Source of the DNA: an uncultured virus (IMG/VR IMGVR_UViG_3300030376_006489)
Taxonomy: Duplodnaviria; Heunggongvirae; Uroviricota; Caudoviricetes
IMG/VR virus record: IMGVR_UViG_3300030376_006489
DNA: 64,000 nucleotides
Reading direction: 5' to 3' (one strand)
The number at the start of each line of letters is the position of its first letter. Position 1 is the first letter of the stretch. Shown here in pieces: positions 16,411-41,109 of this stretch. A model generated the notes under the pieces. The model saw only the letters and a program-made list of their open reading frames with translations. It was not told the DNA's origin and did not search any database. Both the position numbers and the translations under genes were made by a program.

Positions 16411-17619
16411 ATGTCTTTAAAAGAAAAAATTAAAAACGCACTTAAATGGAAAAAAACATCAGAATATTGCGCAGAAAGATTAGGTATAACAGAAGAAGAG
16501 TTTGATAAAATAAAAAAAGAAATTCAATCAGAAGGAAGAGAAAAAAGAAAAGAAGAAAAAGAAATGAGTTATGCAACGGAAGATTGCACATCTTCATATG
16601 ATATAGAAAGTGGACAAGGGAAGATTACAGGAATATCTCAAACAGAACCTAAATCCCCAGAAGAAATTATAAAAATATTAAATATTGATGTAACACAATG
16701 GAAGTTGTCTCAATATTGGAATAAACAAATGTCAGATCATTGGCGTATATCAGCTTTAATCACAAAGCTTAAAAATGATGATACTGCTCATATAGAACAA
16801 TTACTTGAAAACTGGAAACCAAAAAAATTCTCTCCAGTTAAAAGAATTAAAAGTGAAGGTAAAAAAGATGTATGTGCTGTATTATCATTACAAGACATTC
16901 ACTTTGGTAAACAGGGTAATGAAACTATAGACAAAGACTTTGAGGAAACTATTATGGATCTTGTAGAAAGAGCACATGCTAGTCATAATCTTAAAAAAAT
17001 ATATTATGTAGTAGGAGGAGATCTAATGAATATGGACAGTTGGGCTGGTACCACTACTAGCGGTACACCATTAGATAATTGCTCTACTGCTACTGAAGCG
17101 TACACACAAGCATTTGATGCAATATATTGGAGTATTAACTTTATAAAACAATATTGTGATGACTTACAAGTTGTATATATACCAGGTAACCATGATAGAT
17201 TATCTTCATTTCATTTAACACACGCTTTATCTAGAGCTATAGATGATCCTAATATACTTTGGGATGTTACATATCTTGAAAGAAAAGTATATACGTGGGG
17301 TGATAACTTTTTTGCTTTTGAACATGGAGATGTAAATACTAAAAATTCACTTTTACTTTATGCTACAGAGTTTCCTCAACAATGGGGGATAACTAAAAAC
17401 AGAACTTTATTTACAGGTCACTTACATCATAAAAAGAAAGTAGAATATATTACTACAAATGAACGTACAGGCTTCATGTTAAAAATACTTCCAAGTCTTT
17501 CTAGAACAGATTATTGGCATTATCATAATAAATTTGTAGGATCTAAAAGATCAGGTGTAATTGAATTACATGATTATAATAAAGGAAACATATGTGAACT
17601 AACTTATTCACCAGATTAA
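16411..17619 (+). CDS. Calcineurin-like metallophosphoesterase with N-terminal HTH-like segment
   Basis: All five metallophosphoesterase motifs in order: DIHFG, GGDLMN, GNHD, EHGD, GHLHH; N-terminal CAERLGITEEEF. Confidence 0.85.
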   Translation: MSLKEKIKNALKWKKTSEYCAERLGITEEEFDKIKKEIQSEGREKRKEEKEMSYATEDCTSSYDIESGQGKITGISQTEPKSPEEIIKILNIDVTQWKLSQYWNKQMSDHWRISALITKLKNDDTAHIEQLLENWKPKKFSPVKRIKSEGKKDVCAVLSLQDIHFGKQGNETIDKDFEETIMDLVERAHASHNLKKIYYVVGGDLMNMDSWAGTTTSGTPLDNCSTATEAYTQAFDAIYWSINFIKQYCDDLQVVYIPGNHDRLSSFHLTHALSRAIDDPNILWDVTYLERKVYTWGDNFFAFEHGDVNTKNSLLLYATEFPQQWGITKNRTLFTGHLHHKKKVEYITTNERTGFMLKILPSLSRTDYWHYHNKFVGSKRSGVIELHDYNKGNICELTYSPD

Positions 17620-25700: not shown

Positions 25701-28364
25701 AATCAAGGAGCTACCGCTCTCTATGGTGAAAATGTAGCATCAGAAATATTAGGATTAATACCTTGTGAATTAGAAGAAACTGAAGGACTAGAATGCCCAG
25801 TGGGATGCAACTTGACAGAAACATCAGCAGGTCAAATGGAATGTTATTGTTCAGAAACATTAGGTGAACCTGCAGGTTTTGCTTCTGATACATTAATAGA
25901 TATAAGTTTGACAGATACTGAATATTTTGAAGATGTATCATGGACAATAAGCTATGATCCAAAAAATAAAGCATGGATGTCATTTCATGATTGGCATCCT
26001 GAACTTGTTATGCCAAGTTATAGTCATTTTTTAACTACAAAAAGTACAGTAACACAAACTCCATCATGTCCTCCAGGATGGACATTTAGTTCAACATCAC
26101 AAATGTGTGAAAGAGACGGTGAATATTATGGATTAGATTCTATAATAACAGTAGACGATATTAAAGCACCATGCATGGAACCTACTAGTCAAATGACGGG
26201 AAGAAAATTAGACATAATATTTTCTTTAGATGTTTCTTGGTCTACAGTTAGAAACATTGATGTAAATGCAGATTTAGAAGAAGGACCTCCTATTAGTTAT
26301 GAAGGAACTATATACAAATCACAATTAGAATTTATAGATGCTTTTGCTGTAGCAATGACAGCTCAAATGGCAGCAAACGAAGTTCAAATTGGAATAATAC
26401 CATGGAATGATCAAGTAGTTCTTGCACCAATGTGGTTATATTATCCTGAAGATGATATAACAAAATTAGATCTAACAAATAATCTATCAGCAATAAGAAC
26501 CTTTTTGGGAGTTGGAGATGGATTTACAAACCCTAATTACTCACAAGGATTTTTAGCAATTGCAGGCGGAAATTCAGATGTTACAAGAGGTTTTGATGCT
26601 GCTAAAGGAGGATTAGATTATATTTTAAAATATCCTACAGCAGGTACAAACAATCAAGGAAATTCATATTTAGGATCCAGACAAGGAGAAAATTCTTTTG
26701 AAAGACATGCAATATTTGTAACTGATACAGGACCAGAAGGAATTACTTCTTTAGCATTAAAGATTTCTAATTTAGAAAGTAATGATGATACAGGTTTAAT
26801 AGATACAAGTTCGGAATGCTTTAAAAAAGCAATGGAAAATCTATTTTGGGGAACTGGAAATAATGGGTTATATGCTTTTAACTTTGATAGAAATAATACT
26901 ATATCCCCTAATGTAGATGAAGGATTTGCTGATCCACCTTTAAACACTCCGTCTACTAGTGGATACGGTCTTCAAGCTCAGCATTGGATGGATATGGTTA
27001 GATGTGAATGTACTCAAAATGTTATAAACGGTGATGGAATATCTCCTGTTATGTCAAATTATAATAGAGCAGCAGATCCTACAATGAATATTAATATAAC
27101 AGCAGTATTTACAAATCCTGATAACGAGGATAATTCTGAAGCTTATACAAAAAATGTATTTCCAATTCTTAAATCATTTAATGAATCAAGCGTACCAGTT
27201 TGGGATCTTGTAGGAAACGAAAATTCTTGGGGAAATATAGCAGCAGACGGATCAGAATATTTAAATAATGCTGGAGAATGGGAACCTTTTAGTGCAATAT
27301 CAAGCAATGTAGATAGCTTTGTAACACAAGTAAATTCTAATGCAGCAGATCTTGTAGATCAAATTTTACCATTTAGTGATGACAATAATGATAGAGACTG
27401 TAGAAGATGGTGTCCTGATCCAGAAAGAACACTGGTATGGTTAAACGGTTCAAATTACAGTTCACCAAATAAAATAGGCAATGTTGATAAAGCAGTATGT
27501 AGAAAAGTAACATGTGAGTGTGATCCTATAATACAACAAGTAGTAATAAACAATGGATGGAACCTTTATGATCCAAATGGTGATTTTGAGGGTACCGGTG
27601 TAACAAACGTTGTAGGAGATTGTCCTGATTTTGATCCATTAATTTATGCAATAGGAGATCCTAATTTTAGTTTTTGGGATTGGGATGACTATAGACATCC
27701 TCATTGTTGTGTTACTGAAATATGCCACTATCCTCCTAGTTATGATGTAGGCGGAATATGGAAACATAATATAAGATGTGATTCATATGCAAATTATTAT
27801 GGTATAGATTACCCGTGGGAAATAGAATGGGTAGAAGGTACAGGACAACACGTTTATACATTAAGAAATGTAGAATATCAAATGGAATCCTATATTTACA
27901 AAGGGGCTTTAGCTAATGATTGTGGAGATAGATTCCATGATTTAGATTGGAATTTTGATGAAGCTGTTATTTATAATACAGAACAAGTATCAGGATTATT
28001 AAAATTAAATTTAACTCCTAAAAATAATGTTCCTTTGATAACTCAATATCCAATAATAGGAGCTAATGATATTGAAATATTGTATAGTAAAGAAGAACAA
28101 GTATACAGATTTAATCAATTTTGGGATATAACATTTGACAGAGGAGAGTTTAATCCTGGTATAAGTAATTCAATTTATTTAACACAACTTAATGGTTATA
28201 TAAGAGATTTAAATGCACAAAATTTAAATTATAATAAACCAGCTTTACAACGTAAGAAATTTAGACATTATTGGAATAAAGTACTTCTTAGAAAAAATGT
28301 TTCTGGAAATAGAAAAATGATATTAAAGTTAGCTAACACAAAACTAAATAAGTCACATAGATAA
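19779..28364 (+). CDS. Tail stabilisation / muzzle protein (P22 gp10-like) with inserted vWA-like domains
   Basis: 2861 aa; N-terminal FAGGMTKD...ARNA..., YWDDGLNPSR, FMRDEVYSF, GGDTYVNRY, SWTISYDP..WMSFHDWHP, IWKHN resemble crAss-like muzzle proteins; internal DIIFSLDVSWS MIDAS motif. Confidence 0.8.
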   Translation: MPKEPKKNPNLQDQTNIDTDLFAGGMTKDPNASIQSKEHWTHARNAINNSDKGDLGTLGNEPSNLFCTDVTYPIIGTVYLYGDKWVIFSTDNNTSEIGIFDDSECLYTPVVNDSSGSSDQGCTPEHCLNFSQQYLITGASKENFDCTWQVYWDDGLNPSRTMNLTNIPWKTERVENGDCVTYEPIEPKQIDCDLIRLAPLLDTPNIALSKSDNGGQLRNGSYQAFIAYTINGQQIGDYIGISNVQSLFDHEDMVGALDIKLSGLDKGEFEEFKLVILSNWQQEQQAKEIGLYSVETLQIGVDYINQSLPTVPIEFLPLRNPAYEKSEKMYVVNDYLIRSGPTERFDFNYQPLANQIETHWTSTEVPADYYANGGNKTNFMRDEVYSFFIRWIYDTGEKSSSYHIPGRAASEYDIPAVLANTGVQSVDQLMNPGDPNCLDPDEKVFQTYNTAGWGYWQATGPFPTDDGGFITFRGSMGYWESTERYPMDPVRWNANIGNPDLDLCGKPIRHHKFPTEQTGLVAGAMGPCTRSGVTAQSMRIMGVKFSNIHLPRLNPETIQEECEETETDVVNLVPGIVGYEILVGSRAGNKSIIAKGIARNMRNHRLPPDAAGNKSHESIGNMQAVHANYPFNDIGCDPFLHNPGGSTDQYSSDGLGDEDDPPEWAYGRNNSQGIPHPSNWSKQNMFTFHSPETSFDRPFLSPYELHSYGLCAGGSYGLFKKSEKHPGEKLINTTAAVIAIIIGVGYAIAKTRGKRRVKFDYPQTHIPLASASAGGAIAASVGLAGGNAAGLAITQAGTAVSESVHTGSAILGAPGLGQEAAQLFNTGTAWGAQALMSGGSHGGGKTIEYDRSGSFFSELPSVFQPIYGVIAFMQSVAEGGNHILELIYNLCSYVDYAYKFNGHGLYRATYPFNAGDCWRTKVEKARYVKNTITNLSNTVRMNNLFRPATVAVLGEDETNADSHVLREPRVWIDGFPLYDNSRHQGTMQNCNWPSMPFMKNILAHYCGLKLNFENQYGQLDQIKQIPITNSEYGNGYHLLSKFLDRDANDEIIPPDINTTLWSWSLYGGDTYVNRYTEKVIMPFFWDFLKGQPNGFVYDYRLRANVMFPMFWANFERYDLSKLTKWITDLTFLDTPATLAGAMPYGYYHLDNCDGGCAGWSGSWGNDQAFFSAAEFGDASTGDSLQTNDISGTQGFETQGGGTGNLLGLFTGGGGGSGNTSTFSSFTNSISGGGTPNATSDTWNADDSGDKRGKGLFHIKDGYFYTHSSGIQDFFVESEYNIALRDYEDTKYKRHYDWLEFTDINTLFTADVLSAGNFYKYDKALSISNLVTQQISSGDIQPRYYDPKVAETCWTHYPKRLIYSLQAQKEATKDFWRVFLPNNYKDFKNKVNVIKPVSKSGAVILFPHLSPMMWQGVDQLQTDLGTKITIGDGGLFSQPQQNIVNADLSHEYGSCESSRGVINTPTGLFYISQQQGKIFHMAGQGLLNIADQGMKQWFNEYLPSKLIQDFPELENHPEWSDNPIAGAGCQAVYDPNYDLVYFCKKDYKLISNHECVEFIPGQGFVYNATLCDGAAQTQCCPEGFSIIPELSTMRCSRDWWVSPSPTNEIACKDPYDIIFVIYGGDRISNPTGVNNPQFSWGEGDANNPAWQTLRDTMTYTFQGLADNGQLGPGADDSQVMIMQFDNSTGLDNHYIDYTGNLGTLLDFANNGYMNPDYVSEGGVDNIPEGSDPSGATWWALEWGYRKGRPGVKKMLIEIWAAYDAVCTYNWSGIDDNDYPDLPSCNGCTYAGFDSPASYIEDGTNWTPIAPPMVNIIADNIGEPGSLGFDRGLNDYGLNNAWLTPEDETLFVGPVCSPQEQGAFDNYLDWKNDNVFDASCRYQNPNHPDFDGELTVIGVWYSPWNYCKCTNDGASNNGCNMDPNVSGSLGYPNNHPSMVNNANWNIGAAPTQGNIDYTVARSSPGHAIWSPMSPGPNQGATALYGENVASEILGLIPCELEETEGLECPVGCNLTETSAGQMECYCSETLGEPAGFASDTLIDISLTDTEYFEDVSWTISYDPKNKAWMSFHDWHPELVMPSYSHFLTTKSTVTQTPSCPPGWTFSSTSQMCERDGEYYGLDSIITVDDIKAPCMEPTSQMTGRKLDIIFSLDVSWSTVRNIDVNADLEEGPPISYEGTIYKSQLEFIDAFAVAMTAQMAANEVQIGIIPWNDQVVLAPMWLYYPEDDITKLDLTNNLSAIRTFLGVGDGFTNPNYSQGFLAIAGGNSDVTRGFDAAKGGLDYILKYPTAGTNNQGNSYLGSRQGENSFERHAIFVTDTGPEGITSLALKISNLESNDDTGLIDTSSECFKKAMENLFWGTGNNGLYAFNFDRNNTISPNVDEGFADPPLNTPSTSGYGLQAQHWMDMVRCECTQNVINGDGISPVMSNYNRAADPTMNINITAVFTNPDNEDNSEAYTKNVFPILKSFNESSVPVWDLVGNENSWGNIAADGSEYLNNAGEWEPFSAISSNVDSFVTQVNSNAADLVDQILPFSDDNNDRDCRRWCPDPERTLVWLNGSNYSSPNKIGNVDKAVCRKVTCECDPIIQQVVINNGWNLYDPNGDFEGTGVTNVVGDCPDFDPLIYAIGDPNFSFWDWDDYRHPHCCVTEICHYPPSYDVGGIWKHNIRCDSYANYYGIDYPWEIEWVEGTGQHVYTLRNVEYQMESYIYKGALANDCGDRFHDLDWNFDEAVIYNTEQVSGLLKLNLTPKNNVPLITQYPIIGANDIEILYSKEEQVYRFNQFWDITFDRGEFNPGISNSIYLTQLNGYIRDLNAQNLNYNKPALQRKKFRHYWNKVLLRKNVSGNRKMILKLANTKLNKSHR

Positions 28365-31300
28365 TGAAGTATAGCAAACACGGATATAAGAGAAACAGTA
28401 AGGATAGAAACAATCCTTATAATGTAATACCTTCAGGTGAGATCACTATGAAAGGTGTTGACTTTCCTATATACGGTGTTGATGATTTAGGTAATGAAAA
28501 AGTAATGATGCCAGGTGCACACTATACATTTCCAGGTAATACAGTATTAGAAGTTCCATTACACAACATGCAACAAGGAGGAGAAGAACAACCAAGAATG
28601 CACCCATTTGAAGAATGGGCAACTTCTCAAGGAATGGATCCTCAACAAGCTTTACAAATGATATCATCTAATCCTGAAGGATATCCACCAGAAGTTATTG
28701 AAGCTGCACAAGCTTATGCTCAGGAATTACAAAGACAAAATCCTATCAATGATAAACAAGATGAAATGCTACATGAAGCACAACAAGAACAATCTTTATA
28801 TCAAGAAGGAGATGAAGTTCCAACAGAACCTGAAATATATACATTAGGAACAGATGAACTTGGAAATATTCCAGGTGAATATTATAATTCTACAGGAGAA
28901 TTTAAAGAACAACCTTGGTTAAGTAGACAAGGGTTTAGAGAAGAATTAACAGGACCAGAATATCCTTGGAGTTTTAAAAATGAAGAAGGGTATAATAAAT
29001 GGGATAAAGAAGGCATATCAGAAATAGACTATGGGATAAAAGAATCTGAAAAAGAAAACTTGCTTCAAACATATAATTATCTAGAGGAAACTGGTGCTTT
29101 AGATTATTTATATGATGATGATGAATATGATCAAGTAAGAAATGAGTATAGCGGTTTAGATTTAATGGAACAACATCTAAAGAGAATTAAATCTTTACCT
29201 GAAGATGAGAAAACGGATCTTTTGGATTGGGATGACTATGATGCTTATTCACAAGTAGCAGAACATCATGGCAAAGACTATTTAGGTTATGGAGAATTTG
29301 TAGATCTTCCAGTAAATGAAAGATTTTCTTCTTTTACACCAAGTGAAATAAATGAAGTTCTTTATCCAGGATTAGATCTAGAAGTGATGAAACCAGCTTC
29401 TGGAGAATTAACATATGATCCTCTTGCTTTTCTACCTTTTCCTGCTGGAGCTGTAACAGGTGGAATAGCAAAACCTATTCTTAGATTTGCTGATGACGCA
29501 TTAAAATATGGTAAAAACTTCTTTAAGAGAATACCTCTAAAAAAACAAGCAGATGAAGTTGCAGAATGGATGTATAAATATTATAATCATCCAAAACGAA
29601 TACACTCACCAGTTATACATAATCAACAAGCAAGATGGGCTAGAAAGTTTAATGATATAAATTCAGGCCATAGACTAGAATCAACTCTTCCTAATACTAT
29701 GAGAGAAATGATGAGAGAGGTGACACCTATACCAAACCTCATGCAAAGAATTAATATGAGAGTACCATACAACAAGTTGATAGACCGTAATATAAGTTAT
29801 GGTAATATGTTTAAAGGAGTTCAACCTGGAAATATAAGCAATGTAACAAGAGATGGCTTACTAAGAGATTTTAGAAAGTATATACCTGGAGATCCTAGTG
29901 TAATGGGTAATTCTGCTTTATATCAAAATAGTTATAGACATTTATTACAAGATGTAGTTGGTGATTTAGGATTAAGGAAAGGACTTGATCATTTTGCTAA
30001 GAGATGGTTCGGTTCTTCTGGAGTTTCTTATAGACCAAATATTTCAAGTATGCCTAGGACATCAGGAAAGTTTTACACACAATCAAGACAGGGACCATCT
30101 ATTATTAAACAATCACCACAAGAGATTAAAAGTACAATGGTGCATGAAGGAGATCATTTTTTTCATGCTAACAATATGAGAATGCCAGAGATACAAAGAG
30201 CTGCATTAAAATCTTTAACTACAAAAAACAAATATCAAGGAGGTTTAGGAGAAAGATTATATAAAAAACTTTTTGGAAAAAATACAACATTTTATAAAGG
30301 GGCAAAAAATTACTATCAAGGTGTAGGTGAAATAAATGCACGTATAATGGAAATGAGACATGGTATGAATTTAATGCCTGGACAAAAACTCAGTAAACCA
30401 GCATTAGAATTATATATGAAAAAGAATCCAAGTCTTAATGGTATGAAAAAATGGTTAAATGTAGATAAAACTGGTAAATTTAACAAGGATGAATTCTTAA
30501 CTTATTTTAATACTTATTATGAAGAAGGAGGAGAAGAAAATAATCCAGAACCAACTCTTGTAACTCCTGGAACAAACGAATACCGTAAAGCATATCAGGA
30601 TAATACATTAACAACATATAATCCAGAAGACAACTCATATCATTTTCCAACACTTGATGAAGTTACAGTAACAGATGATTTACCAGCAACACCACAAGCT
30701 CTTAGAGAATGGTCTAGAACAAATGATCCTATTGCATATGCTACTAGAGAAGCGACAACAGAAGCAGCTCCATATGCTTTAGCACTGATGGCACCAGCAC
30801 TTATTGGAGCAAGTTTACCAATAGCAACAGCAATAGGAACTTCAGCCCCTGTAACTGCAGGTGTAGGTTTATTAGATGATGTAGCAATGGGTTTATATAA
30901 CAGCCCATATGTAGGAGGAGCTATTAGAAATGCATGGAATTATAATCCCACAAAAATACCAGGATTAACTGTAGGAAACATAACTAATGCAGGGTTTGCT
31001 GGACACGGTGCTGCTAATATAGGACCTAATACTGGAGAACTTATAGAGGATCCATCATTATCAAACACAGCAGATGTAGGAATGAACGTTTTAGAAATGT
31101 CTCCTTTCTTTGGACCTACAACTAACGCAATAAAAGGCGGATTTGGTGTTTTAAAAAATACATTTAAAACTACAGGATCTAATGCTTCTTATATTGATGA
31201 GTTTTTACTTTCTGAAAAACAGCTTGCAGGAATTACAGATAAAATGAGATCATCCGCAGATAATTTAGTTAACCCTGCATATACTTTTTCAATAGATAAA

Positions 31301-34300
31301 ACTAAAGAAATTAATAGTGGGTATAGTAAAGTTTTAAATGAATGGAGTAGTGCAAAAGGAAGAAATAGATTATCTGAAACAATTAGAGATTATCTAACTA
31401 ATCCATATACATATAATAGATTAAACGTAAAGCCAATATATAATAAGGCAGATGATGTTCCACAAGAACTTATAGATGACGCTATTGAGCAATTTTTAGG
31501 TGCACAAAGAAATTTAATATTACAACCTATTGATGAAATTGGTGCAGCGGGTTGGGGTGGTAAAACAGGACTCCCGCGTCCTTTCTTACAGTTAAATCCA
31601 CAATTATCTGGTGATATGTTAGATCAAGTTATAAGACATGAAATGGGACATATACTACAAGGTTTACCAGCTCATGTAAATTTAAAAAAATATGATCCAA
31701 GCAGATACGAAAAACTTTTTGATTATGGTATGATACCTCCTCACAGATATCAAGGTGTAGGTGTTATTGATGAACTCGGAGGAACTAAAAATTCTTTTGG
31801 TATGACATATGGACGTCAATCTCTAGCACAAAATATAGGATTGACTCATAATCAATTACAAATGGATAAAGATTTAATTGCTGGTTTAAAATTAAAACCA
31901 GAATATCAAAATGTATTAGAACGTGATATACCAAAAGACGTAAATTTTATAAGAGGATTGAGTTTAGATAACACAAATGACCGAACAAGAGGCTTATTTC
32001 AAATAAACCCATTAGGTGCAGGTAAATATTTTACATCTGGATCTGGTAAAACTTTTGGGGCAAGTAGAGAACCAACACCTTTTTTAACAGAACTTAGAAC
32101 AGCTATGAAAAATAAAGGGTATATAGATGATGTACACCAACAAGTAACACAAAAGGATATTCTTAATTTTTATAAAAATTATTATAATGCTCCTAGTTCT
32201 ACTCTAGGCGGATCACGTGCAATACCTGATATAAGACTTTTAGAGATAATGGAACCAAGTGTTAGTAATTTTAATTTCTTAGCTGAAACAATGAACAAGC
32301 TTCCTGCAACTATTCCACTTGTAGGAGCAGGACTAATGGGTTCAGATAAAGCTGGACCAGGATATCAACCAGGTGGTGAATTAGAGTATACCCCACAAAC
32401 ACAAGAAGAAGTAAAGTTAAATGATGTTAAAGATGGAGAAGTAAATACAGAAGGCTTAACACCTTATGTAAATTATAATATACCTTATGATATAGACTTC
32501 CATGAAACAGATGTTCCAGATTATATAAAATTAAGACAATCAATAGCAGAATCTACTTTAGATCCAAATGCAGTATCTGAAGCAGGTGCTACAGGATTAA
32601 CACAAATAATGCCAATAACTTTAACAGATTATGAAGAAAGAACGGGGGATACAAGCATAGATTTAACAAACCATCAAGACGCAATGAAAGTTCAAGATTG
32701 GTTAATGAATGATTTATATAATGCAGATTGGATTAATAAACCCAAGCAATCAGAAATGGTTAGAATGGCAAAAACTCTATCAGCATATAATTGGGGCAGA
32801 ACAAGATTTAATGAATTTCTAAATAAACAAAAAAGTAATAAAGTAGATATATATGGTGATAAAATGCCTTGGATTCAAAATCTACCTAAAGAAACTAGAG
32901 ATTATTTATCTAAAATATTATGGGATACACATCCACAAATGACAATTGATTACAAGCATGTAATGGATAGACCTGAAAAATATGGAGTTTATTTTGATGC
33001 TTATAATTTTAATTATAAAAAAGGAGGAGAACAAAAAAGACAACAAAGACTTTGGAAAGAATATAAAAAATACGCAAAAGGAGAAAAGATATCCCCTATA
33101 GTTACAAAAGAGTTAGAAGATTTAGGTTTAATTAAATCACATGTAATTCAACCAAATACATATTATACAGATGATGGAGGCGAAATATCATTTGCTGATG
33201 AATATTCATTAGATGACTTAGAGCTATCAAAAATTTCTAGAGAATCTACATCACCTTTTTCATTAAAACAGCAAGTAGGTTTTTATCAAGATCATATAAA
33301 TGGTGTTTATGATAACTCAAAAAACTTTACAAAATCTAAAACTTTATTTGATAAAATTAATAGACTTTATTTATTAGATGCAAAACAAAATAACAAACAT
33401 GTATTAAGCTACATGAGATCACTACCTAAGTTTCAAAACGAAGGAGAAGTTAATAATGATGTTATTACAGAAAATACGGAGACTACAACAGATAATATCT
33501 CACCAGACATAACTGGAGAAAATATTAATTACTTAAATAATGCCTTATATAATTATACAGAACCAGATTCAATTGCAATAAACAAGGCACAGATGGATAA
33601 TACAAATGTTAATTTAAATCTTGATAGTTTAATTGAAAAAAATCCCAATTTCAATTATCAAAATATGGATGATGATGCGTTTAATAGAGCAATTAATAAT
33701 GTATATAATGATACAATAGATGAAGCAGATTGGAATAAAACAACAAAGAATGAATTGTTATTTCCTAGAGCTGAACAATCAACTGAAACAAATCCTATCT
33801 ATCATGATGAGGATAGAAATCTTGGTGCTATATTGTACTATTCACCACGAAATGAACATGAAACTTTTTTTAAATCTGATTCAGAAAGAATGACCCCATA
33901 TTTAGATGAAACATATGGTGCCGGAAATTATAAAGTTGTACAATTACCACATCAAGCTTATCAACCAAGATATACAGAGTTATCTGACTTAATGTTCAAT
34001 CATCCAGCAATGTTAGAGTTTAAAGAATCTCAAGCCGCAATAAGAGGAACATATAATCCTCAGTTTGATACTTTAAATGAGGAAATCAGTGCTTTAGCTA
34101 GAGAATTAGGTAATGAGCATGATGAAGACTCTGACAACTATAAAAGACTAGATAAGTTATTTAAGGCTAAAAACCAAGAAATATTTGATTTAGAAGACAT
34201 TTATGTAAAAGAAAGAAGAGAGCATAGAGATAATTTTTATGATAATTTAGAAACAACACATCCTGATTTATTTGAAATCCGAAATGAATACAATGATAAT

Positions 34301-37168
34301 TACACTGGAGATAATAGAATGAATAAATATATATCAGCTAAAAATATTGCTGATACACATTTTGGAGATATTAAAAATTTAAGCAGGGACGGAAAGATCT
34401 TTTTTATGCAGCATTCAGATAGCAGAATAGGACCACTTACATTAACAGAATCCCGTAGAGATCCAGGAAAACAAACACCAGGAGTAGTAGATACATTTGG
34501 TGAAATACTATCACCAGAATCCGAAGGAGGTTGGTTAGCTGATAACAATCAAGTTGTATGTTATGCAGGAATGTGCGGAGGTGTTGAAGAAATGAGGGAA
34601 TTAACAGAAGCATCAGGAGTAACTACAATAGGTCAACCAGGAACATGGTCTGGATATCAAAATGCTTCTATATTTCCAGGATATAATATAGAGTCACAAT
34701 TTTTCAACGCTAACCAAGAAGGCATAATTAATCCTGACTTTGACGGAGGAGCATATGTAACACACACTTTAAATGATGGTACAGTTAGATCAGACACTAC
34801 AGGAAGCCGCCCATCACGGTATTACGCAAATACTGAAGACATAGTTGCAGGTAACGTAACCAGATTTCCAGGAGGTATACCAAGAAATACCCACCAGGTC
34901 CGTAGAGGACAGCTACAACAAAATTCAGCACTGGATTATATTGAAGATCAAGAAGGACCTACAGACAGGGGGACTTTGATGGAAAGAGTACTTCCACAAA
35001 GAAACGAAATGAGAGAATGGTTAACAAGAGACAACACAGAAGAACGAGCATCAAGTAGACGTAGGTTTCAACCGGGTGGTGAACCAATAAGACAAGGAAC
35101 TCTTGATGCTGTAAATGTAGGGCCAGGAGGAGATGCAATTGAATTCTTTAAAGCAAGATTACCTTATTATGATACTTTAAGTAGTGATCAAAGACAACAT
35201 CTTAATGATGTATATTTAGGTGAAGTATCAGAAAGTCCAATATTTAGAAATATAATAGGACAAGGTAGAGAAGGTTATGGTATAGGAAATAACCCAACAT
35301 ATATGGAAAGCGTACATGATTTTGCTGGAGCTTTTCCAACACTTGCTGGAAAAAATATGTTAGAAACTCTCACCATACCACAAGCAACATTAGTTGAAGG
35401 TATAGAAGCAGTAAGAGGAAATCCTTATAATTTTAAAAACGTATTACCTACTGCAGATAAAAATTTATTTTCAAATCAAAGATTTCCAAGTAATACATTT
35501 CTTCAAGACGCTGCACCTGGATGGCAAATAGCTGGAGATATAGGAATTGATCCAGCTGTAATTTTTGGACTTGGAAAGTTAGGTCAATTAGGAGTTAGAT
35601 CATTAAGATCTGCTGCAAGAAACAGAAAGCTTGCAACTACTCTTTCATCTACTATGGATGACGCTCTTACAACTCCAACTAATTATAATACTGTTTCTAG
35701 ACCAGCATCTATATTTGATGGAGCAAATCCTGGATTTGGTCAAAGTGATGAACTAGTAGATGATGCTTATAAAGCAATAGGTTCTATTGGAGAAGATAAA
35801 ATATATTCAACCTCACAAATAGGAGATTTAACTGTTACTAATGCATCTAAAAATTTATTAACAGATATGTCAAATGCAGCAAATACAGGAAAATTTGTTA
35901 ATAATTCTTTTCCTCAAATTGGTGTTGCAGGTGGTAAATTAAATGTTCCAAACAAAACTCAAATTACTAAGTTTGATGATGCGCTTAACACAGCATTTGA
36001 TTATAAAGGAATGGAAGATGGTACTAATGTTGCATTAACAAGAGTAATTGATTCAAAAGGACTTACTGTTGAAAACGGTAAATTAACTTTTAAAATTGCA
36101 CCTCATATACAGGGAAGCAAAGGAGCATTAAAAATACAAAACTATGATGATATAATTAAAAAAAGAAATACAACACATTTTTCATTTTCTCACATTCAAG
36201 GGGATGAGTATCATAGCTCTCATGGTGCTGGATATTGGAAAAATAAATCAACTGCCGTTATTAATAATATAAACGATTTAAAAAAACATGGTGAATTATT
36301 AAATATTTCTCCTAGTGATACTTATTTCTATAATAAACATAACATGTTTGTTGGAGATCAAGCTATTGTATTAACTAGAGATAAAAAGTTATATGATAAT
36401 ATTACAAAAAATGCTCCTAAAACTAATATATACTATGTAGGAAAAAATGTAACTGATGATCAATTTACTGAAATAGTTAATTCATTTCATAGAACTGCAG
36501 GATCTTCACAAGATATGAATGGATTATTTCATAACTATGTTGGTAACGAACTTGTAGCAGGTAGAGATGTTGGTAAGTTTAAAGTATCAAATAAAGAACA
36601 TTATCTTAAAGATTTTTCTAGTAATAATCCTAGTACATTTTCAGGTGGATTTGCAGGTCATGATTCTACACATGGCGGTAGCATATTTAGTGATTTAGAA
36701 AAAGCTGCTAATTTTAAAAATTTAAAATATATAGGTCCTGAATTAAAATCTGGTGTAGATCCTTCTGGTAAGTTACCAAGCAGACAAGGAACAATAACAG
36801 ATTTAAGTAAAACATATCATAATCCATACTTGATGCGTAGTTATAATCCTCCAGGAAATATACATCATCAAGCTAAATTATTAAATAAATATATTCCATA
36901 TCCAGAAATGAAAGAAAGTCCAAGAATATATAAGAATTGGTTGAAGGATAATGCTTTTGAAAACCTTTCAAGTTACCCTATTGAAGTTCAAATAAATGAA
37001 ATACAAAAATTAGCTTCTTCAGGTTTTGATAAAAAATTTTTAAATATACATAAAGAATATTTGGCATTAGATAATGGATTTGATACATGGACAGATATGG
37101 TTGCAGGTTCAAAATATAGCACAATGAAAAGAAAAGGTGGGGAAGTTAACAGCTTAAAACAATATTAG
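28364..37168 (+). CDS. Giant modular virion cargo/ejection protein (2 zincins, lytic transglycosylase, putative Cys protease)
   Basis: 2934 aa; HEGDH (30143) and HEMGH (31637) HExxH motifs with downstream Glu; SLT motifs AES-..-GATGLTQIMP-..-AYNWG (approx. 32546-32797); FFMQHS / YAGMCG pair; TAATG-coupled to the muzzle gene. Confidence 0.75.
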   Translation: MKYSKHGYKRNSKDRNNPYNVIPSGEITMKGVDFPIYGVDDLGNEKVMMPGAHYTFPGNTVLEVPLHNMQQGGEEQPRMHPFEEWATSQGMDPQQALQMISSNPEGYPPEVIEAAQAYAQELQRQNPINDKQDEMLHEAQQEQSLYQEGDEVPTEPEIYTLGTDELGNIPGEYYNSTGEFKEQPWLSRQGFREELTGPEYPWSFKNEEGYNKWDKEGISEIDYGIKESEKENLLQTYNYLEETGALDYLYDDDEYDQVRNEYSGLDLMEQHLKRIKSLPEDEKTDLLDWDDYDAYSQVAEHHGKDYLGYGEFVDLPVNERFSSFTPSEINEVLYPGLDLEVMKPASGELTYDPLAFLPFPAGAVTGGIAKPILRFADDALKYGKNFFKRIPLKKQADEVAEWMYKYYNHPKRIHSPVIHNQQARWARKFNDINSGHRLESTLPNTMREMMREVTPIPNLMQRINMRVPYNKLIDRNISYGNMFKGVQPGNISNVTRDGLLRDFRKYIPGDPSVMGNSALYQNSYRHLLQDVVGDLGLRKGLDHFAKRWFGSSGVSYRPNISSMPRTSGKFYTQSRQGPSIIKQSPQEIKSTMVHEGDHFFHANNMRMPEIQRAALKSLTTKNKYQGGLGERLYKKLFGKNTTFYKGAKNYYQGVGEINARIMEMRHGMNLMPGQKLSKPALELYMKKNPSLNGMKKWLNVDKTGKFNKDEFLTYFNTYYEEGGEENNPEPTLVTPGTNEYRKAYQDNTLTTYNPEDNSYHFPTLDEVTVTDDLPATPQALREWSRTNDPIAYATREATTEAAPYALALMAPALIGASLPIATAIGTSAPVTAGVGLLDDVAMGLYNSPYVGGAIRNAWNYNPTKIPGLTVGNITNAGFAGHGAANIGPNTGELIEDPSLSNTADVGMNVLEMSPFFGPTTNAIKGGFGVLKNTFKTTGSNASYIDEFLLSEKQLAGITDKMRSSADNLVNPAYTFSIDKTKEINSGYSKVLNEWSSAKGRNRLSETIRDYLTNPYTYNRLNVKPIYNKADDVPQELIDDAIEQFLGAQRNLILQPIDEIGAAGWGGKTGLPRPFLQLNPQLSGDMLDQVIRHEMGHILQGLPAHVNLKKYDPSRYEKLFDYGMIPPHRYQGVGVIDELGGTKNSFGMTYGRQSLAQNIGLTHNQLQMDKDLIAGLKLKPEYQNVLERDIPKDVNFIRGLSLDNTNDRTRGLFQINPLGAGKYFTSGSGKTFGASREPTPFLTELRTAMKNKGYIDDVHQQVTQKDILNFYKNYYNAPSSTLGGSRAIPDIRLLEIMEPSVSNFNFLAETMNKLPATIPLVGAGLMGSDKAGPGYQPGGELEYTPQTQEEVKLNDVKDGEVNTEGLTPYVNYNIPYDIDFHETDVPDYIKLRQSIAESTLDPNAVSEAGATGLTQIMPITLTDYEERTGDTSIDLTNHQDAMKVQDWLMNDLYNADWINKPKQSEMVRMAKTLSAYNWGRTRFNEFLNKQKSNKVDIYGDKMPWIQNLPKETRDYLSKILWDTHPQMTIDYKHVMDRPEKYGVYFDAYNFNYKKGGEQKRQQRLWKEYKKYAKGEKISPIVTKELEDLGLIKSHVIQPNTYYTDDGGEISFADEYSLDDLELSKISRESTSPFSLKQQVGFYQDHINGVYDNSKNFTKSKTLFDKINRLYLLDAKQNNKHVLSYMRSLPKFQNEGEVNNDVITENTETTTDNISPDITGENINYLNNALYNYTEPDSIAINKAQMDNTNVNLNLDSLIEKNPNFNYQNMDDDAFNRAINNVYNDTIDEADWNKTTKNELLFPRAEQSTETNPIYHDEDRNLGAILYYSPRNEHETFFKSDSERMTPYLDETYGAGNYKVVQLPHQAYQPRYTELSDLMFNHPAMLEFKESQAAIRGTYNPQFDTLNEEISALARELGNEHDEDSDNYKRLDKLFKAKNQEIFDLEDIYVKERREHRDNFYDNLETTHPDLFEIRNEYNDNYTGDNRMNKYISAKNIADTHFGDIKNLSRDGKIFFMQHSDSRIGPLTLTESRRDPGKQTPGVVDTFGEILSPESEGGWLADNNQVVCYAGMCGGVEEMRELTEASGVTTIGQPGTWSGYQNASIFPGYNIESQFFNANQEGIINPDFDGGAYVTHTLNDGTVRSDTTGSRPSRYYANTEDIVAGNVTRFPGGIPRNTHQVRRGQLQQNSALDYIEDQEGPTDRGTLMERVLPQRNEMREWLTRDNTEERASSRRRFQPGGEPIRQGTLDAVNVGPGGDAIEFFKARLPYYDTLSSDQRQHLNDVYLGEVSESPIFRNIIGQGREGYGIGNNPTYMESVHDFAGAFPTLAGKNMLETLTIPQATLVEGIEAVRGNPYNFKNVLPTADKNLFSNQRFPSNTFLQDAAPGWQIAGDIGIDPAVIFGLGKLGQLGVRSLRSAARNRKLATTLSSTMDDALTTPTNYNTVSRPASIFDGANPGFGQSDELVDDAYKAIGSIGEDKIYSTSQIGDLTVTNASKNLLTDMSNAANTGKFVNNSFPQIGVAGGKLNVPNKTQITKFDDALNTAFDYKGMEDGTNVALTRVIDSKGLTVENGKLTFKIAPHIQGSKGALKIQNYDDIIKKRNTTHFSFSHIQGDEYHSSHGAGYWKNKSTAVINNINDLKKHGELLNISPSDTYFYNKHNMFVGDQAIVLTRDKKLYDNITKNAPKTNIYYVGKNVTDDQFTEIVNSFHRTAGSSQDMNGLFHNYVGNELVAGRDVGKFKVSNKEHYLKDFSSNNPSTFSGGFAGHDSTHGGSIFSDLEKAANFKNLKYIGPELKSGVDPSGKLPSRQGTITDLSKTYHNPYLMRSYNPPGNIHHQAKLLNKYIPYPEMKESPRIYKNWLKDNAFENLSSYPIEVQINEIQKLASSGFDKKFLNIHKEYLALDNGFDTWTDMVAGSKYSTMKRKGGEVNSLKQY

Positions 37169-37218: not shown

Positions 37219-40200
37219 ATGTCAAGAAAATTAAAAAGATATCAACAACAGGGAGAGGTTAAGTTAACACTAAAACAATGGTGTTCACAAAACGGTGATA
37301 TATGCACTTCAGATCCTCAAAGAGCCACTCAATTATATGATAAGTATTCAACAATGCATGATATGTCTCAAATAGATATAGGGTTTAATACTAGTGGAAA
37401 TATGGATATAGCATTTGGAGGAGTAGATACTTCACCAGAAGCAGAAGAAGCACAATACAATGCAGGACCACAACTTAATCCTGATAACCTTCAATATTTT
37501 AAAGCTCTTAATCAAGATCATTTAATGCTTCCAGCATATGGACAATCTCCTTTACCGCATTTAGCTGCTGGGCTTTATAATGCATTTCATGATATAAAAG
37601 ATATTTTTACAGAACCATCAGAACAGCAAGTAACTGGATATCAAACTGGAGAATACGTAATTGATCCAGAATTACAAGCTAAACATCCTAACAACCCAAA
37701 AAGATTTTTAGTACCTAGAAAAGAATATTTAAATAAATATTATCAAAACTGGTTTGATAAAAGAACAGAAATGTACCCTGATAAATTTGCAGCTGTTGAT
37801 TTTGATTTAGATGAATGGAATCAAACCGGGCAACTTAGTTATATAGGAGATCCTTTAGAAGGAGATTTATATGAACTAGAAAATCCTGATGCAGATGTAA
37901 TAACATGGGATAAAGATGAAGAAGGAAATCTTGATGATATGACTTCTTGGGGTGAATATGAGGATGATGGAACTTTAACAACAACACCTTTTGAAACAGA
38001 TGTTGAAACAGATGTTGAAACAGATACAGATGAAACTTTAGTAGATGAAGATCCTATTGTTATACCAGATGAGGTAGAAAATTATGAACCAGAATTTATT
38101 GAAGAAGATGAAGAAGAGGTAGTTATATTAGATACAGGTCAAGAAGGTAAAGAAACTAAAGAGTCACCAGATCCAACAGGAACTACACAAGGTGAAGAGG
38201 AGATGGCCACAACAGGTTATACAATACCACCAACTATTGAGCCGTCTTTAGAAAATGAAGAGTATAGACAAGAATACCTTAATAAAATAAAAAACTGGTA
38301 TGATAACGCACCTGATGATTATTATGATCCTAATGTAGTGATACATGATACAGACGGAAGATCATATTATGAACCATATTATGAAACAATAAATTTATAT
38401 CAAAATGATATAGATAGATTAGGAATGAATCCATTAATGAGTCACGAGTTACATCATCATATGCAAAATGTAAATGATGAGTTAACATATCATCAAATGA
38501 TGAAAAAATTCTATCCAGATAATGCAGGTTTACATTTTAACACATATGTTCCTAAACCCAAAGGTCCAGTTACACATCAAGTTTTAGGAAATTATTATGA
38601 CAGAAGAGCTGCTGAAAAAAATATGTTAATGGATGGATTTATAGAATCTAATCCAGATTCTAGATTTTTTCCAGCTTTTCAAGAGGTTGCATATAATAGA
38701 CTAGAAGATCAGCAATATGATATACCATGGACAATGGAAGGCGAAGCACATGAAATAGAAAATCAAGGAGGGTATCCTGTAAATATTTTAAACAGACTTG
38801 CAGAAAATGCAGAATTAAGAACATATCAAGATGGAGGAGATGATGGAGGAGATGATGGTGGAGATGACGGATGGGATGCTAGCGGAGATGATGATGGTGG
38901 AGATTGGGACATAGATGAAGGAAGTTATGATCCTGATATATATACATTTAATCCTGAACTTGATGATCAAATTGATGCAGATGAGAATGACAGTTATCAA
39001 TGGACTGAAGAAGAAGAAGAGGAAGAAGAATACACTCCACAAACTGTAGATCCACCAGAGGAATATGATCCGCAAACTCAAGATTATGATCCACCAAGTG
39101 ATCCATATGATCCACCAGATGATGGAGGAGATGATTACTATGATGATGGTGAAGGTGGAGGAGGTGATCCTTGTCCAGGAGGAAATTGTAATGAAGAAGG
39201 AGGAGGAGGTGGAAGAAGTGGAGCACCACCAGAAACACAGGCAAGAAGAAAAAGTGGATGGAGTCCATATAAAAAAGGAAAAAAGTTTTTAGATAGAGAT
39301 ATACCTAAAGCATTTTGGAAATTAAGCCATGCTGCAGTTGCTATTGCAAAACCCCTTAACATGTATCTTAGTCAAAGGCAACAAAGAAAAAGACAAGAGA
39401 TGTTAAAAATGTCAACTATGGCTGATAACATGTTTGGTGTTACAGATGCAGATCTTTCAGGATCTAAAGGAGACTATACTGTAAACGAAGGTTTCTTTAG
39501 ACCTGATGATAGAACTCTTAGTAGAATGGGTAGATATGGAATGGAAATGAAATATGGAGGATCAAATGAGGATAACGGTTTACACTCTTTTATTCCTCAA
39601 GCCAGTGATGGAATGGAATATTATAAAAATAATTATCCTGGTTATGAGGATTTAACTGATAATCAAAAAAGACAATTAGATTATGAAATGAAAGGAACTA
39701 CGTATAATTTCTATGAAGATTTATATAATTTTCAAAACCCAAAGAATGTAACAGGTCCTCACTCTGATCATACAAATACAATGAGTTATCCATTTCCTGA
39801 ATACATGAGACATTATGATAATCATCCAGGAATAGATGCAAAAGGAACAGATTGGAGCGGAACATTTAAAGGCTGGGATGAAAACCCTAATGCAAATAAT
39901 TATTACAAACACAGATGGTCTAAATATGGAGACTGGGATACCAATAAAGGTTGGGGAAGATCTGAAAATAGAAAATGGGATGTATGGCAAGGGAAAGGAA
40001 GTACAGTAACAGATCCAAATACAGGAAAAGAAACCAATTGGAGAAAAGGACCATGGGAAGGTTTTTATTCAGGATATTCTTGGATGCCAGAAGATCCAAT
40101 AAGTGTTAGCGAAAAAGATTGGAATACACTTGTAGATGTAGGTTATTATAATCCTAAATATATAGATGAAAGAGGAAAATGGAGCAGAGCTAAAAATGAT

Positions 40201-41109
40201 TATGTTAATAGACACGCTGATGCTTATATGACATGGGAAAGCATACTGCGTAAAAATAATCCAGAATTAACTACAATGCAAATACATGATCTTATGCATT
40301 CAGGAGTACATAGACAATCTATGCGAGGTGGTAGAAAAGGTAGCCCATGGGCACCAGGTATTCCAACTCCAGAAAGAATGAGACAAGATGATTATAAATG
40401 GGGAGAATACAGTGATGTATTATTTAACAATAGACAAGTAATGCCTCCAGGCAGCCGTGAAGAAACAGACTATACTCCACCAGAACCACCACCACCTGAA
40501 TATCCAGATGAGCCAGAATTTGATGATGTAACATTTGATGACTTAGATGAAGAATTTGAATTACAAGATGAGGATGGAATTACAGAAATACCAGGAGAAA
40601 CAGAAATAGAAGAAGAAATAGAATATTATGATTTTGACAATGATGGGATAGCGGATGACTCTACAGATAATACAGATATAATTGATACGTATGATGATAC
40701 AACTATTGATCCTAGTACAGGAGGTATAATTCCTGCACCATCAAATATGGATGATCAATTTACAAGGTCAACAGATGGAGGATATGATCCATCAAGTAGA
40801 AATGATTATGATTATACTCCACAAACCACAAGATCAAATGAAGAAATGAATCAATCAGCATATGGAGATTCAGGTTCACCACAAACTCAAAGTTATGAAC
40901 CACAAGCTACTAGCGGAACAGAAGAATATATACCTCAAACAGTAGCAGGTACTGATGAGTATGAACCACAAACACAGCAATCAGATGAAGAGGATAGTAC
41001 AGATGCTAAATATGGTGGACAGTTTTTTAATAATGGAGGAGAAGCTGAAATAGATATAAACACATATAAACAATTAATTGCTGCAGGAGCAGATATAGAA
41101 ATATTATAA
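37219..41109 (+). CDS. Acidic virion cargo protein with zincin-like domain
   Basis: 1296 aa, strongly D/E-rich; HELHH (38443) with downstream EGEA; DDGG and YxPQT repeats; C-terminal EIDINTYKQLIAAGADIEIL. Confidence 0.6.
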   Translation: MSRKLKRYQQQGEVKLTLKQWCSQNGDICTSDPQRATQLYDKYSTMHDMSQIDIGFNTSGNMDIAFGGVDTSPEAEEAQYNAGPQLNPDNLQYFKALNQDHLMLPAYGQSPLPHLAAGLYNAFHDIKDIFTEPSEQQVTGYQTGEYVIDPELQAKHPNNPKRFLVPRKEYLNKYYQNWFDKRTEMYPDKFAAVDFDLDEWNQTGQLSYIGDPLEGDLYELENPDADVITWDKDEEGNLDDMTSWGEYEDDGTLTTTPFETDVETDVETDTDETLVDEDPIVIPDEVENYEPEFIEEDEEEVVILDTGQEGKETKESPDPTGTTQGEEEMATTGYTIPPTIEPSLENEEYRQEYLNKIKNWYDNAPDDYYDPNVVIHDTDGRSYYEPYYETINLYQNDIDRLGMNPLMSHELHHHMQNVNDELTYHQMMKKFYPDNAGLHFNTYVPKPKGPVTHQVLGNYYDRRAAEKNMLMDGFIESNPDSRFFPAFQEVAYNRLEDQQYDIPWTMEGEAHEIENQGGYPVNILNRLAENAELRTYQDGGDDGGDDGGDDGWDASGDDDGGDWDIDEGSYDPDIYTFNPELDDQIDADENDSYQWTEEEEEEEEYTPQTVDPPEEYDPQTQDYDPPSDPYDPPDDGGDDYYDDGEGGGGDPCPGGNCNEEGGGGGRSGAPPETQARRKSGWSPYKKGKKFLDRDIPKAFWKLSHAAVAIAKPLNMYLSQRQQRKRQEMLKMSTMADNMFGVTDADLSGSKGDYTVNEGFFRPDDRTLSRMGRYGMEMKYGGSNEDNGLHSFIPQASDGMEYYKNNYPGYEDLTDNQKRQLDYEMKGTTYNFYEDLYNFQNPKNVTGPHSDHTNTMSYPFPEYMRHYDNHPGIDAKGTDWSGTFKGWDENPNANNYYKHRWSKYGDWDTNKGWGRSENRKWDVWQGKGSTVTDPNTGKETNWRKGPWEGFYSGYSWMPEDPISVSEKDWNTLVDVGYYNPKYIDERGKWSRAKNDYVNRHADAYMTWESILRKNNPELTTMQIHDLMHSGVHRQSMRGGRKGSPWAPGIPTPERMRQDDYKWGEYSDVLFNNRQVMPPGSREETDYTPPEPPPPEYPDEPEFDDVTFDDLDEEFELQDEDGITEIPGETEIEEEIEYYDFDNDGIADDSTDNTDIIDTYDDTTIDPSTGGIIPAPSNMDDQFTRSTDGGYDPSSRNDYDYTPQTTRSNEEMNQSAYGDSGSPQTQSYEPQATSGTEEYIPQTVAGTDEYEPQTQQSDEEDSTDAKYGGQFFNNGGEAEIDINTYKQLIAAGADIEIL
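38830..38901 (+). repeat. Degenerate GATGATGGWGGA coding repeat (DDGG)n
   Basis: gatggaggagat gatggaggagat gatggtggagat gacgga... visible in the sequence. Confidence 0.7.

Follow-up and report, generated by a model that had tools for sequence, protein, structure and literature searches.

A putative clan-CD-type cysteine peptidase module in a giant polyvalent protein of crAss-like phages

The DNA analyzed here is a 64,000-nucleotide stretch from an uncultured virus (IMG/VR IMGVR_UViG_3300030376_006489); the whole stretch is termed the window. It is the structural block of a crAss-like phage, and one of its open reading frames (ORFs) encodes a giant protein of 2934 amino acids (aa) built of several modules, one of which is our subject. 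ORF aa ~1818–2146, the core of this module, very probably adopt a clan-CD-like (caspase/haemoglobinase) fold, as judged from two predicted models. An invariant His (His2017) and an invariant Cys (Cys2071) fall exactly at the clan-CD catalytic positions, and the domain is fairly likely to be an active Cys-dependent hydrolase or transpeptidase. The module is most likely a new, sequence-orphan clan-CD-like family, and most likely one of many swappable modules in a giant polyvalent protein of marine crAss-like phages. On balance we lean toward a new family of clan-CD-type Cys/His peptidase domains that serves as an optional, swappable effector module of this protein.

Conserved residues and predicted fold of the module

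An earlier note on this DNA, made from its letters alone, had marked off a module between the motifs FQNEGE and FQPGGE and read it as a putative clan-CD cysteine protease. Its landmarks were a hydrophobic strand GAILYY plus a helix, a His at 34412 in KIFFMQHS, and a Cys at 34574 in VVCYAGMCGG. All are present as described. The two motifs flank the module, with FQPGGE directly past its end at 35065. GAILYY corresponds to predicted strand beta1, and a helix comes after it; the His is ORF His2017; the Cys is ORF Cys2071, the second Cys of its motif; and MRELTEASGVTTIG, downstream of VVCYAGMCGG, is predicted to form a helix and a strand. The module is laid out as follows.

33431–33448, plus strand: FQNEGE linker, the upstream module boundary, ORF aa 1690–1695; preceded by aa 1611–1689
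33449–33814, plus strand: Asn/Thr-rich spacer, poorly conserved; predicted local distance difference test (pLDDT) score below 50 in the modeled part
33815–34801, plus strand: structured core, ORF aa ~1818–2146, with beta1, alpha1, beta2, helical insert, beta3-His, beta4-Cys, alpha, beta5 and C-terminal beta-hairpin (AlphaFold, VIA-align, DSSP)
33956–34378, plus strand: antiparallel helical hairpin (~140 aa) between beta2 and beta3, of variable length and much shorter in relatives L001 and L003
34412–34414, plus strand: invariant His2017 (MQHS; Q/K-H-G in most homologs), 2 residues past predicted beta3
34559–34561, plus strand: invariant Cys2066, within predicted beta4, the first Cys of C-Y-x-G-x-C
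34574–34576, plus strand: invariant Cys2071, 2 residues past beta4, the candidate nucleophile
34802–35065, plus strand: C-terminal tail of the module, basic and poorly conserved; homology to relatives ends at ~aa 2135–2209
35066–35083, plus strand: FQPGGE linker, the downstream module boundary

The earlier note had named a lack of conservation in homologs as something that would refute its reading. All 32 distinct homologous domain sequences, reaching down to about 25% identity, retained the His and both Cys residues. The Cys motif read C-[YFW]-x-G-x-C in 30 of these domains and C-I-x-G-x-C in the other two, and the His-Cys spacing ranged over 45–57 residues in the collected domains, with 54 in the window copy. 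An alignment of 16 sequences, down to 22% identity (alignment A1; in model numbering His229 is His2017 and Cys283 is Cys2071), had invariant positions at His229, Gly235, Glu241, Arg244, Pro251, Asp255-Thr256-Phe257, Glu259, Cys278, Tyr279, Gly281, Cys283 and Trp307. Besides the His and the two Cys, these are eleven positions. At the sequence level the observation is more than chance, with three residues invariant in 32/32 domains and with enriched linkers (see below).

Two other readings of these motifs were rejected. In a deaminase-like HxE/PCxxC motif the His would be followed by x-E, but here it is followed by G/S/N-D; for an alpha/beta-hydrolase GxCxG elbow, the +2 Gly varies in alignment A1. 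Clan CD is preferred to both because of the order, His before Cys, and because of the structural matches.

We searched for relatives of the module in several ways. With a 545-aa stretch as query against 1.84 billion representatives, phmmer hit just 14 clusters at E ≤ 1e-3; the matched core spanned query residues ~125–460. A word-indexed search of large proteins yielded five more relatives, and an IMG/VR search yielded nine module loci. A profile search with the catalytic half led to 11 proteins, all of the same family, with no bridge to other families. No PHROGs or NCBIfam family matched the module, and we found nothing relevant in the literature on a cysteine protease in crAss-like phages. 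Module-bearing records were crassviruses by the presence of Crass_capsid in all three tested.

Two models were predicted. Model 1 (AlphaFold2, alignment A1, window copy first) had a mean pLDDT of 83.5 and a predicted template modeling (pTM) score of 0.74. By DSSP its elements are beta1 (32–38), alpha1, beta2 (68–72), the helical hairpin (~76–217), beta3 (218–227), His229, two small beta bridges with a short helix, beta4 (277–281), Cys283, a helix, beta5 and a C-terminal beta-hairpin (residues 343–358). Model 2 was of L001, a relative whose domain has a much shorter insert and is 32% identical to that of the window; its pLDDT was 74.8.

Both models were compared with 48,161 PDB representatives using VIA-align, whose stated background is Z 7–8, and 50 matches were listed for each. 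The best for model 1 were the SAVED-CHAT protein 8tl0 (Z 10.2, root-mean-square deviation 3.8, 159 aa) and Tce1 (9qpe_G; Z 10.0, root-mean-square deviation 3.8, 155/178 aa). These were followed by metacaspase-4 at 9.8, legumain at 9.3, OaAEP1 at 9.0, metacaspase-9, Yca1 and the cysteine protease domain (CPD) of TcdA at 8.7, GPI8 at 8.4 and C11 at 8.0. Among the matches listed that spanned the alpha/beta core, 16 of 17 were clan CD and the remaining one was AmiC; the other 33 covered the helical hairpin only and were coiled-coil proteins. The best 12 matches of model 2 were all clan CD, including Tce1 (Z 10.3, 154 aa), CHAT (9.8), metacaspase-4 (9.0), and the TcdA CPD and C11 (both 8.3). Clan CD, with the Raptor caspase-like domain counted in, made up 32 of the 50 listed for this model, and the first unrelated fold was the glutamate-receptor amino-terminal domain at Z 7.7. 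The best matches of the two models were clan CD and ran from Z 8 to 10.3 over 150–185 aligned residues. Tce1, CHAT and the CPDs of TcdA, TcdB and RtxA being among the best, the matches agree with the CPD-type and CHAT kinship guessed in the earlier note, and its clan-CD-like fold and active-site order are borne out as far as predicted models go.

In the part of PMC4357240 available, what defines clan CD is a His/Cys dyad, through the order and type of its residues and through its structural setting, where beta3 and beta4 end on their C-terminal side. Four strands and three helices make up the minimal fold, and in caspases a small beta section lies between beta3 and alpha3. Our model agrees with these points wherever secondary structure can show them. 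The His comes first, 2 residues past beta3, and the Cys lies 2 residues past beta4; the dyad is conserved in 32/32 homologs. The core fold, a parallel sheet of order 2-1-3-4 with helices alpha1–alpha3, is indicated by the structural matches of the two models.

The carrier protein, its linkers and its surroundings

The carrier gene contains a series of GG motifs, two HExxH motifs and one recognized catalytic domain.

28364–37168, plus strand: gene of the 2934-aa multi-module ("polyvalent") protein, carrier of the module (ORF list, translation)
28568–28585, plus strand: MQQGGE linker, behind the conserved 70-aa N-terminal anchor
30143–30157, plus strand: HEGDH (HExxH) of an upstream module, ORF aa 594; candidate zincin-type metallopeptidase and rival processing enzyme
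30518–30535, plus strand: YEEGGE linker
31637–31651, plus strand: HEMGH (HExxH) of a second upstream module, ORF aa 1092
32363–32380, plus strand: YQPGGE linker
32546–32842, plus strand: SLT lytic transglycosylase domain, ORF aa 1395–1493 (Pfam PF01464, E 2e-10; PHROG endolysin/lytic tail protein families)
33014–33031, plus strand: YKKGGE linker
37127–37144, plus strand: KRKGGE motif, 8 residues short of the C-terminus

The pattern [FYM][QKE]x[GE]GE occurs six times in the carrier ORF against 0.04 expected, and none of 5000 shuffles reached six. GGE occurs seven times against 1.2 expected, a count reached by one of 5000 shuffles; it is absent from the neighboring 2861-aa ORF and occurs once in an ORF of at least 5228 aa downstream. 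We compared the carrier by BLAST with 39 relatives sharing its first 70 residues. Homology breakpoints fell at aa ~70, 724–739, 1334, 1602, 1687–1689 and 2241, and all coincide with linkers; at FQPGGE, homology with P0022 begins exactly behind the linker, at aa 2241. Among the relatives, these are the places where modules have been gained, lost or put in a different order. Since the enriched motifs coincide with the breakpoints, the [FY]-[QK]-x-G-G-[ES] linkers are real module boundaries. A second, very regular flavor, [KY]-x-G-G-S-L-P-K-A-Q-x-G, lies between modules in distant relatives (P0010, P0016, P0019, L001, L002 and others). We found no published description of it, and neither [FY]-[QK]-x-G-G-[ES] nor GGSLPKAQxG was found in the available part of the polyvalent-protein paper PMC5512222.

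SLT was the only domain that Pfam recognized in the carrier, with no match for either HExxH module. Relatives of the protein additionally carry ART-PolyVal, LysM, YkuD and SET domains. With SLT, two HExxH modules, the clan-CD-like module and module-wise breakpoints, the carrier has the unrelated catalytic domains in shuffled architectures that mark polyvalent proteins. The segment just upstream of FQNEGE (ORF aa 1611–1689, window 33194–33430, ~80 aa) forms the extreme C-terminus of most anchor-family members; the carrier continues ~1250 residues beyond it. From the clan-CD-like module onward, the sequence therefore resembles an addition to a protein that was once complete without it, as though a giant gene lying downstream had been joined on.

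The anchor itself (MKYSKHGYK..., window 28364–28573) is a stand-alone ORF of 82–86 aa in four 100%-complete IMG/VR records of ~66 kb (L030, L032, L037, L043). In a 99%-complete crassvirus (G001) the frame that starts with it is just 514 aa long. Its behavior is that of a small, independent domain with cargo modules added to it. Among GenBank phages, it matched proteins annotated as "virion structural protein" in Cellulophaga phages phi17:2 and phi4:1. This homology and the position of its gene make it probable that the carrier protein is part of the virion and enters the host by ejection.

The large ORFs of the window all lie on the plus strand, and GC content is ~32%. The portal was identified by a match to PHROG 6547 (that to P22_portal was weak), the major capsid protein by PHROG and by Pfam Crass_capsid (E 2.4e-33), and the tail ring proteins by Pfam CrAss_Ring_2 and CrAss_Ring_1. 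Downstream (3') of the ring genes come, in order, the 2861-aa ORF, the 2934-aa carrier ORF, three ORFs of ~1200 aa, and the ORF of at least 5228 aa. No tRNA genes were found in the window.

19779–28364, plus strand: 2861-aa structural ORF, 3' of the ring genes (ORF list)

The last ORF of the series (48316–63999) extends past the window end and has no Pfam match in its first 4895 aa; judged from where it lies, it may encode the virion RNA polymerase-like giant protein of crassviruses. In a 1296-aa ORF at 37219–41109, TYQDGG (aa ~539) is followed by an acidic GGDDGGDDGGDD run, and KYGGS and NNGGE are additional GG motifs. Linker-like motifs may continue into the next cargo genes. Within the otherwise structural block, a 402-aa ORF (16411–17619) matched PHROG 704, "DNA repair exonuclease" (E 5e-49).

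Possible roles of the module

In the mechanism that we propose, the giant polyvalent protein would travel in the virion and enter the host by ejection. Once delivered, His2017 would activate Cys2071, and the domain would cut its substrate, either a protein of the host or a phage protein delivered along with it, at specific peptide bonds. The module would be an optional effector or accessory protease and not a general separator of modules at the GG linkers. The analysis shows similarity of the two predicted models to clan CD at the level of fold, the order, position and invariance of the dyad, the distribution of the module, and that linkers mark module boundaries. What we infer is that the domain is catalytically active, that it reaches the host, and what it targets; the effector or trans-acting role is offered tentatively, at a little short of an even chance.

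Several points weigh against a clan-CD peptidase effector. No sequence-level tie to any clan-CD family emerged from Pfam, PDB profile or Atlas searches. At E ≤ 1, Pfam gave none of Peptidase_C14, C11, C13, C25, C80, CHAT or DUF4347 in any of 16 members, nor in P0001 or P0002; PDB sequence profile searches with the whole domain and with the catalytic half gave no match; and the Atlas leads for the domain (Stv 0.86, C80 0.85, DUF4347 0.84) all lay under the 0.9 line. Foldseek, a check proposed in the earlier note, turned up clan-CD families as its best weak matches (C11, CPD, CHAT, caspases and legumain in the PDB; giant-virus caspases or metacaspases in BFVD), but nothing at E ≤ 1e-3 with either model in the PDB or in BFVD. 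A VIA-align Z of ~10 is a modest excess over the background of 7–8, and the dyad is placed by the predicted secondary structure of the models. Next to the His, most homologs have Gly and a few have Asn; the window copy, like two others, has Ser there. The E, R, P, DTF and E between His and Cys are as invariant as the dyad, so the chemistry could differ from simple proteolysis. Finally, the GenBank "structural protein" labels, on which the proposed packaging and ejection partly rest, were assigned by similarity.

The distribution of the module bears on its role. The anchor family comprises 40 proteins of 1613–5135 aa that share the N-terminal anchor. Eleven have the module, at varying positions; the other 29 have linker-like motifs without it. 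At least one HExxH is present in 29 of the 40, and 6 have neither module nor HExxH. Among 21 IMG/VR records encoding the anchor, none had the module anywhere in the record (positive control 3/3). Six of these are ≥90% complete, four of them uninformative with the anchor as the stand-alone 82–86-aa ORF; the others, G004 (97% complete) and G005 (94%), encode proteins of 2108 and 1972 aa with linkers and no module. A tblastn search with two divergent module copies found no match in 50,697 GenBank phage records, yet the complete genome of phi17:2, without the module, encodes gp041 (L045, NC_021798.1, 8968–11655, 895 aa, "virion structural protein"), whose anchor shows 46% identity over 62 aa. It has the linkers FQAGG, YQNGG, FQIGG and FQSGG, and lacks both module and HExxH. 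In G001 the module opens a different protein of 2737 aa, ~44 kb from the anchor gene. Going by this distribution across sequenced relatives, the module seems at least dispensable for the linkers.

The earlier note had offered two roles, a MARTX-like enzyme that cuts the GG motifs after injection and an effector in its own right. The first is not supported, the linkers being kept in phages without the module; the second fits the distribution better, and for that reason we favor it, with activity and target still conjectural. A self-processing module would cut the polyprotein at [FY]-[QK]-x-G-G-E, in cis or trans, after ejection or during assembly, and free the other modules. That CPD-type proteins rank among the best structural matches is in its favor, as are linkers that are strongly enriched, mark homology breakpoints and flank the module on both sides. 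A stand-alone form of 473 aa (P0012) even bears YQKGGS and YKKGGV at its two ends, and a weak hint of complementarity lies in the module's presence in 5 of 11 anchor proteins without HExxH versus 6 of 29 with it. Against these stand the 29 anchor proteins with linkers alone, the six with neither module nor HExxH, the 21 anchor-encoding records including G004 and G005, and the linkers of phi17:2 gp041; the accessible part of the crAss001 virion paper (PMC10172136) has no mention of cleavage or a protease. We regard self-processing in this broad sense as unlikely. Its narrower version, a caspase-fold protease that cuts the ejected giant protein at [FY]-[QK]-x-G-G-E inside the host, is less likely again. 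Were it true, bacteriophages would have an equivalent of MARTX/large-clostridial-toxin autoprocessing, one whose P1/P1' specificity would be new, and phages without the module would depend on other embedded peptidases.

It is similarly improbable that the clan-CD-like module is unrelated cargo in a protein whose linkers are cut by another enzyme, one of the two HExxH modules or a prohead-type protease, or are left uncut. HExxH occurs at ORF aa 594 and 1092 as well as in most of the family, and Atlas leads for ORF aa 450–722 are LPD23 and zincin-type clusters (SprT-like, M90, ATLF), weak and all <0.9. The phiKZ prohead protease has the consensus S/A/G-x-E. In the portion of PMC7411985 available, the prohead protease of SPN3US cuts ejection proteins after A-x-E, sites that G-G-E resembles, and embedded zincin-like metallopeptidases are predicted in the available part of PMC5512222 to process polyvalent proteins. 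But six family proteins and phi17:2 gp041 have linkers without HExxH, the HExxH modules went unrecognized by Pfam, and no prohead protease was recognized in the window by PHROG and Pfam scans. In more distant relatives, moreover, the residue behind GG is S or Q, not E. A clan-CE protease (adenain/Ulp1, "GG|X") had also come to mind from the GG linkers for the module itself; it was rejected on account of the predicted parallel alpha/beta sheet, and clan-CE entries were absent from the matches listed for both models, which is weak evidence.

The fold might also be caspase-like or Rossmann-like and the domain no peptidase at all: a pseudo-enzyme, a binding module, a metal site or some other acyl-transfer chemistry. 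Periplasmic-binding-protein-type folds scored Z 7.6–7.7, slightly under the clan-CD matches; two invariant Cys residues are atypical of clan CD, as are the E, R, D and E that never vary in the stretch from His to Cys; and inactive members exist, such as the Raptor caspase-like domain, itself among the matches. This is the least probable of the alternatives that we weighed, with His and Cys invariant in all 32 domains at the catalytic positions and the best 12 matches of model 2 all clan CD. A metal site shared by Cys2066, Cys2071 and His2017 is unlikely in the models, because Cys2066 sits inside beta4, five residues ahead of Cys2071.

Crassviruses are among the most abundant phages, and the role of their large ejected cargo proteins is largely unknown. 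If the peptidase effector proposed above is correct, His2017/Cys2071 is a concrete, mutable active site for asking what a crassvirus does to its host at the onset of infection. The family is tiny and has no curated match, so annotation pipelines do not see it. The GG linkers pose a separate question, whether they are cleavage sites, hinges or recombination joints; phi17:2, an isolated phage with linkers, is suited to the matter of linker cleavage.

Comparison with known systems

The C80 CPDs (MARTX RtxA, TcdA/TcdB) and Tce1/Tce2 of the Pseudomonas aeruginosa type VI secretion system have, like the models of the phage module, a compact caspase/haemoglobinase fold with a His...Cys dyad. Tce1 was the best or second-best match of both models (Z 10.3 and 10.0, over ~155 of 178 residues), and the CPDs of TcdA, TcdB and RtxA were among the structural matches listed. 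According to the available part of PMC13323088, Tce1 is a CPD-like putative cysteine protease with His186/Cys240, and the spacing of 54 in that pair equals that of the window copy. CPDs are also domains within, or delivered with, a large injected multi-domain protein, as the phage module probably is. The differences from C80 are several. There is no sequence similarity, Pfam PF11713 being without a match, and the phage module has a ~140-aa helical hairpin insert. The phage target is a bacterium, where the CPD activator inositol hexakisphosphate would not be expected. In CPDs a basic pocket that binds this activator, together with a beta-flap, gates activity; model 1 of the phage module has a C-terminal beta-hairpin. 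The phage linkers lack a conserved Leu of the kind that CPDs cut after, and they are kept in phages without the module.

CHAT proteins (SAVED-CHAT of 8tl0, from defense of the cyclic oligonucleotide-based antiphage signaling type) and metacaspases/orthocaspases (C14B) were also top matches (CHAT Z 10.2 and 9.8, metacaspase-4 9.8 and 9.0 for the two models). They have the strand order predicted for the phage module, with His past beta3 and Cys past beta4. By contrast, Pfam gave no CHAT or Peptidase_C14 match for the phage module, which lies in a virion-type giant protein and not in a host defense operon, and which has no sensor domain.

Polyvalent proteins of phages and conjugative elements, as described in the available part of PMC5512222 (Iyer, Burroughs, Anand, de Souza and Aravind, 2017), likewise string together unrelated catalytic modules that are shuffled between relatives. 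Four peptidase superfamilies are given there for them (zincin-like, assemblin-like, DD and LonC), and neither "caspase" nor "cysteine" appears as a word in that part of the text; if our assignment is true, a caspase-fold module would be the fifth. The cargo proteins gp45 and gp46 of crAss001 (PMC10172136, available part; Bayfield et al. 2023) likewise have their genes in the structural block of a crassvirus, 3' of those for the tail ring, and are presumed to be stored in the capsid or tail and then ejected, as would be the case here. They are 60–90 kDa versus ~330 kDa for our carrier, and the likeness drawn here is one of gene position and presumed delivery.

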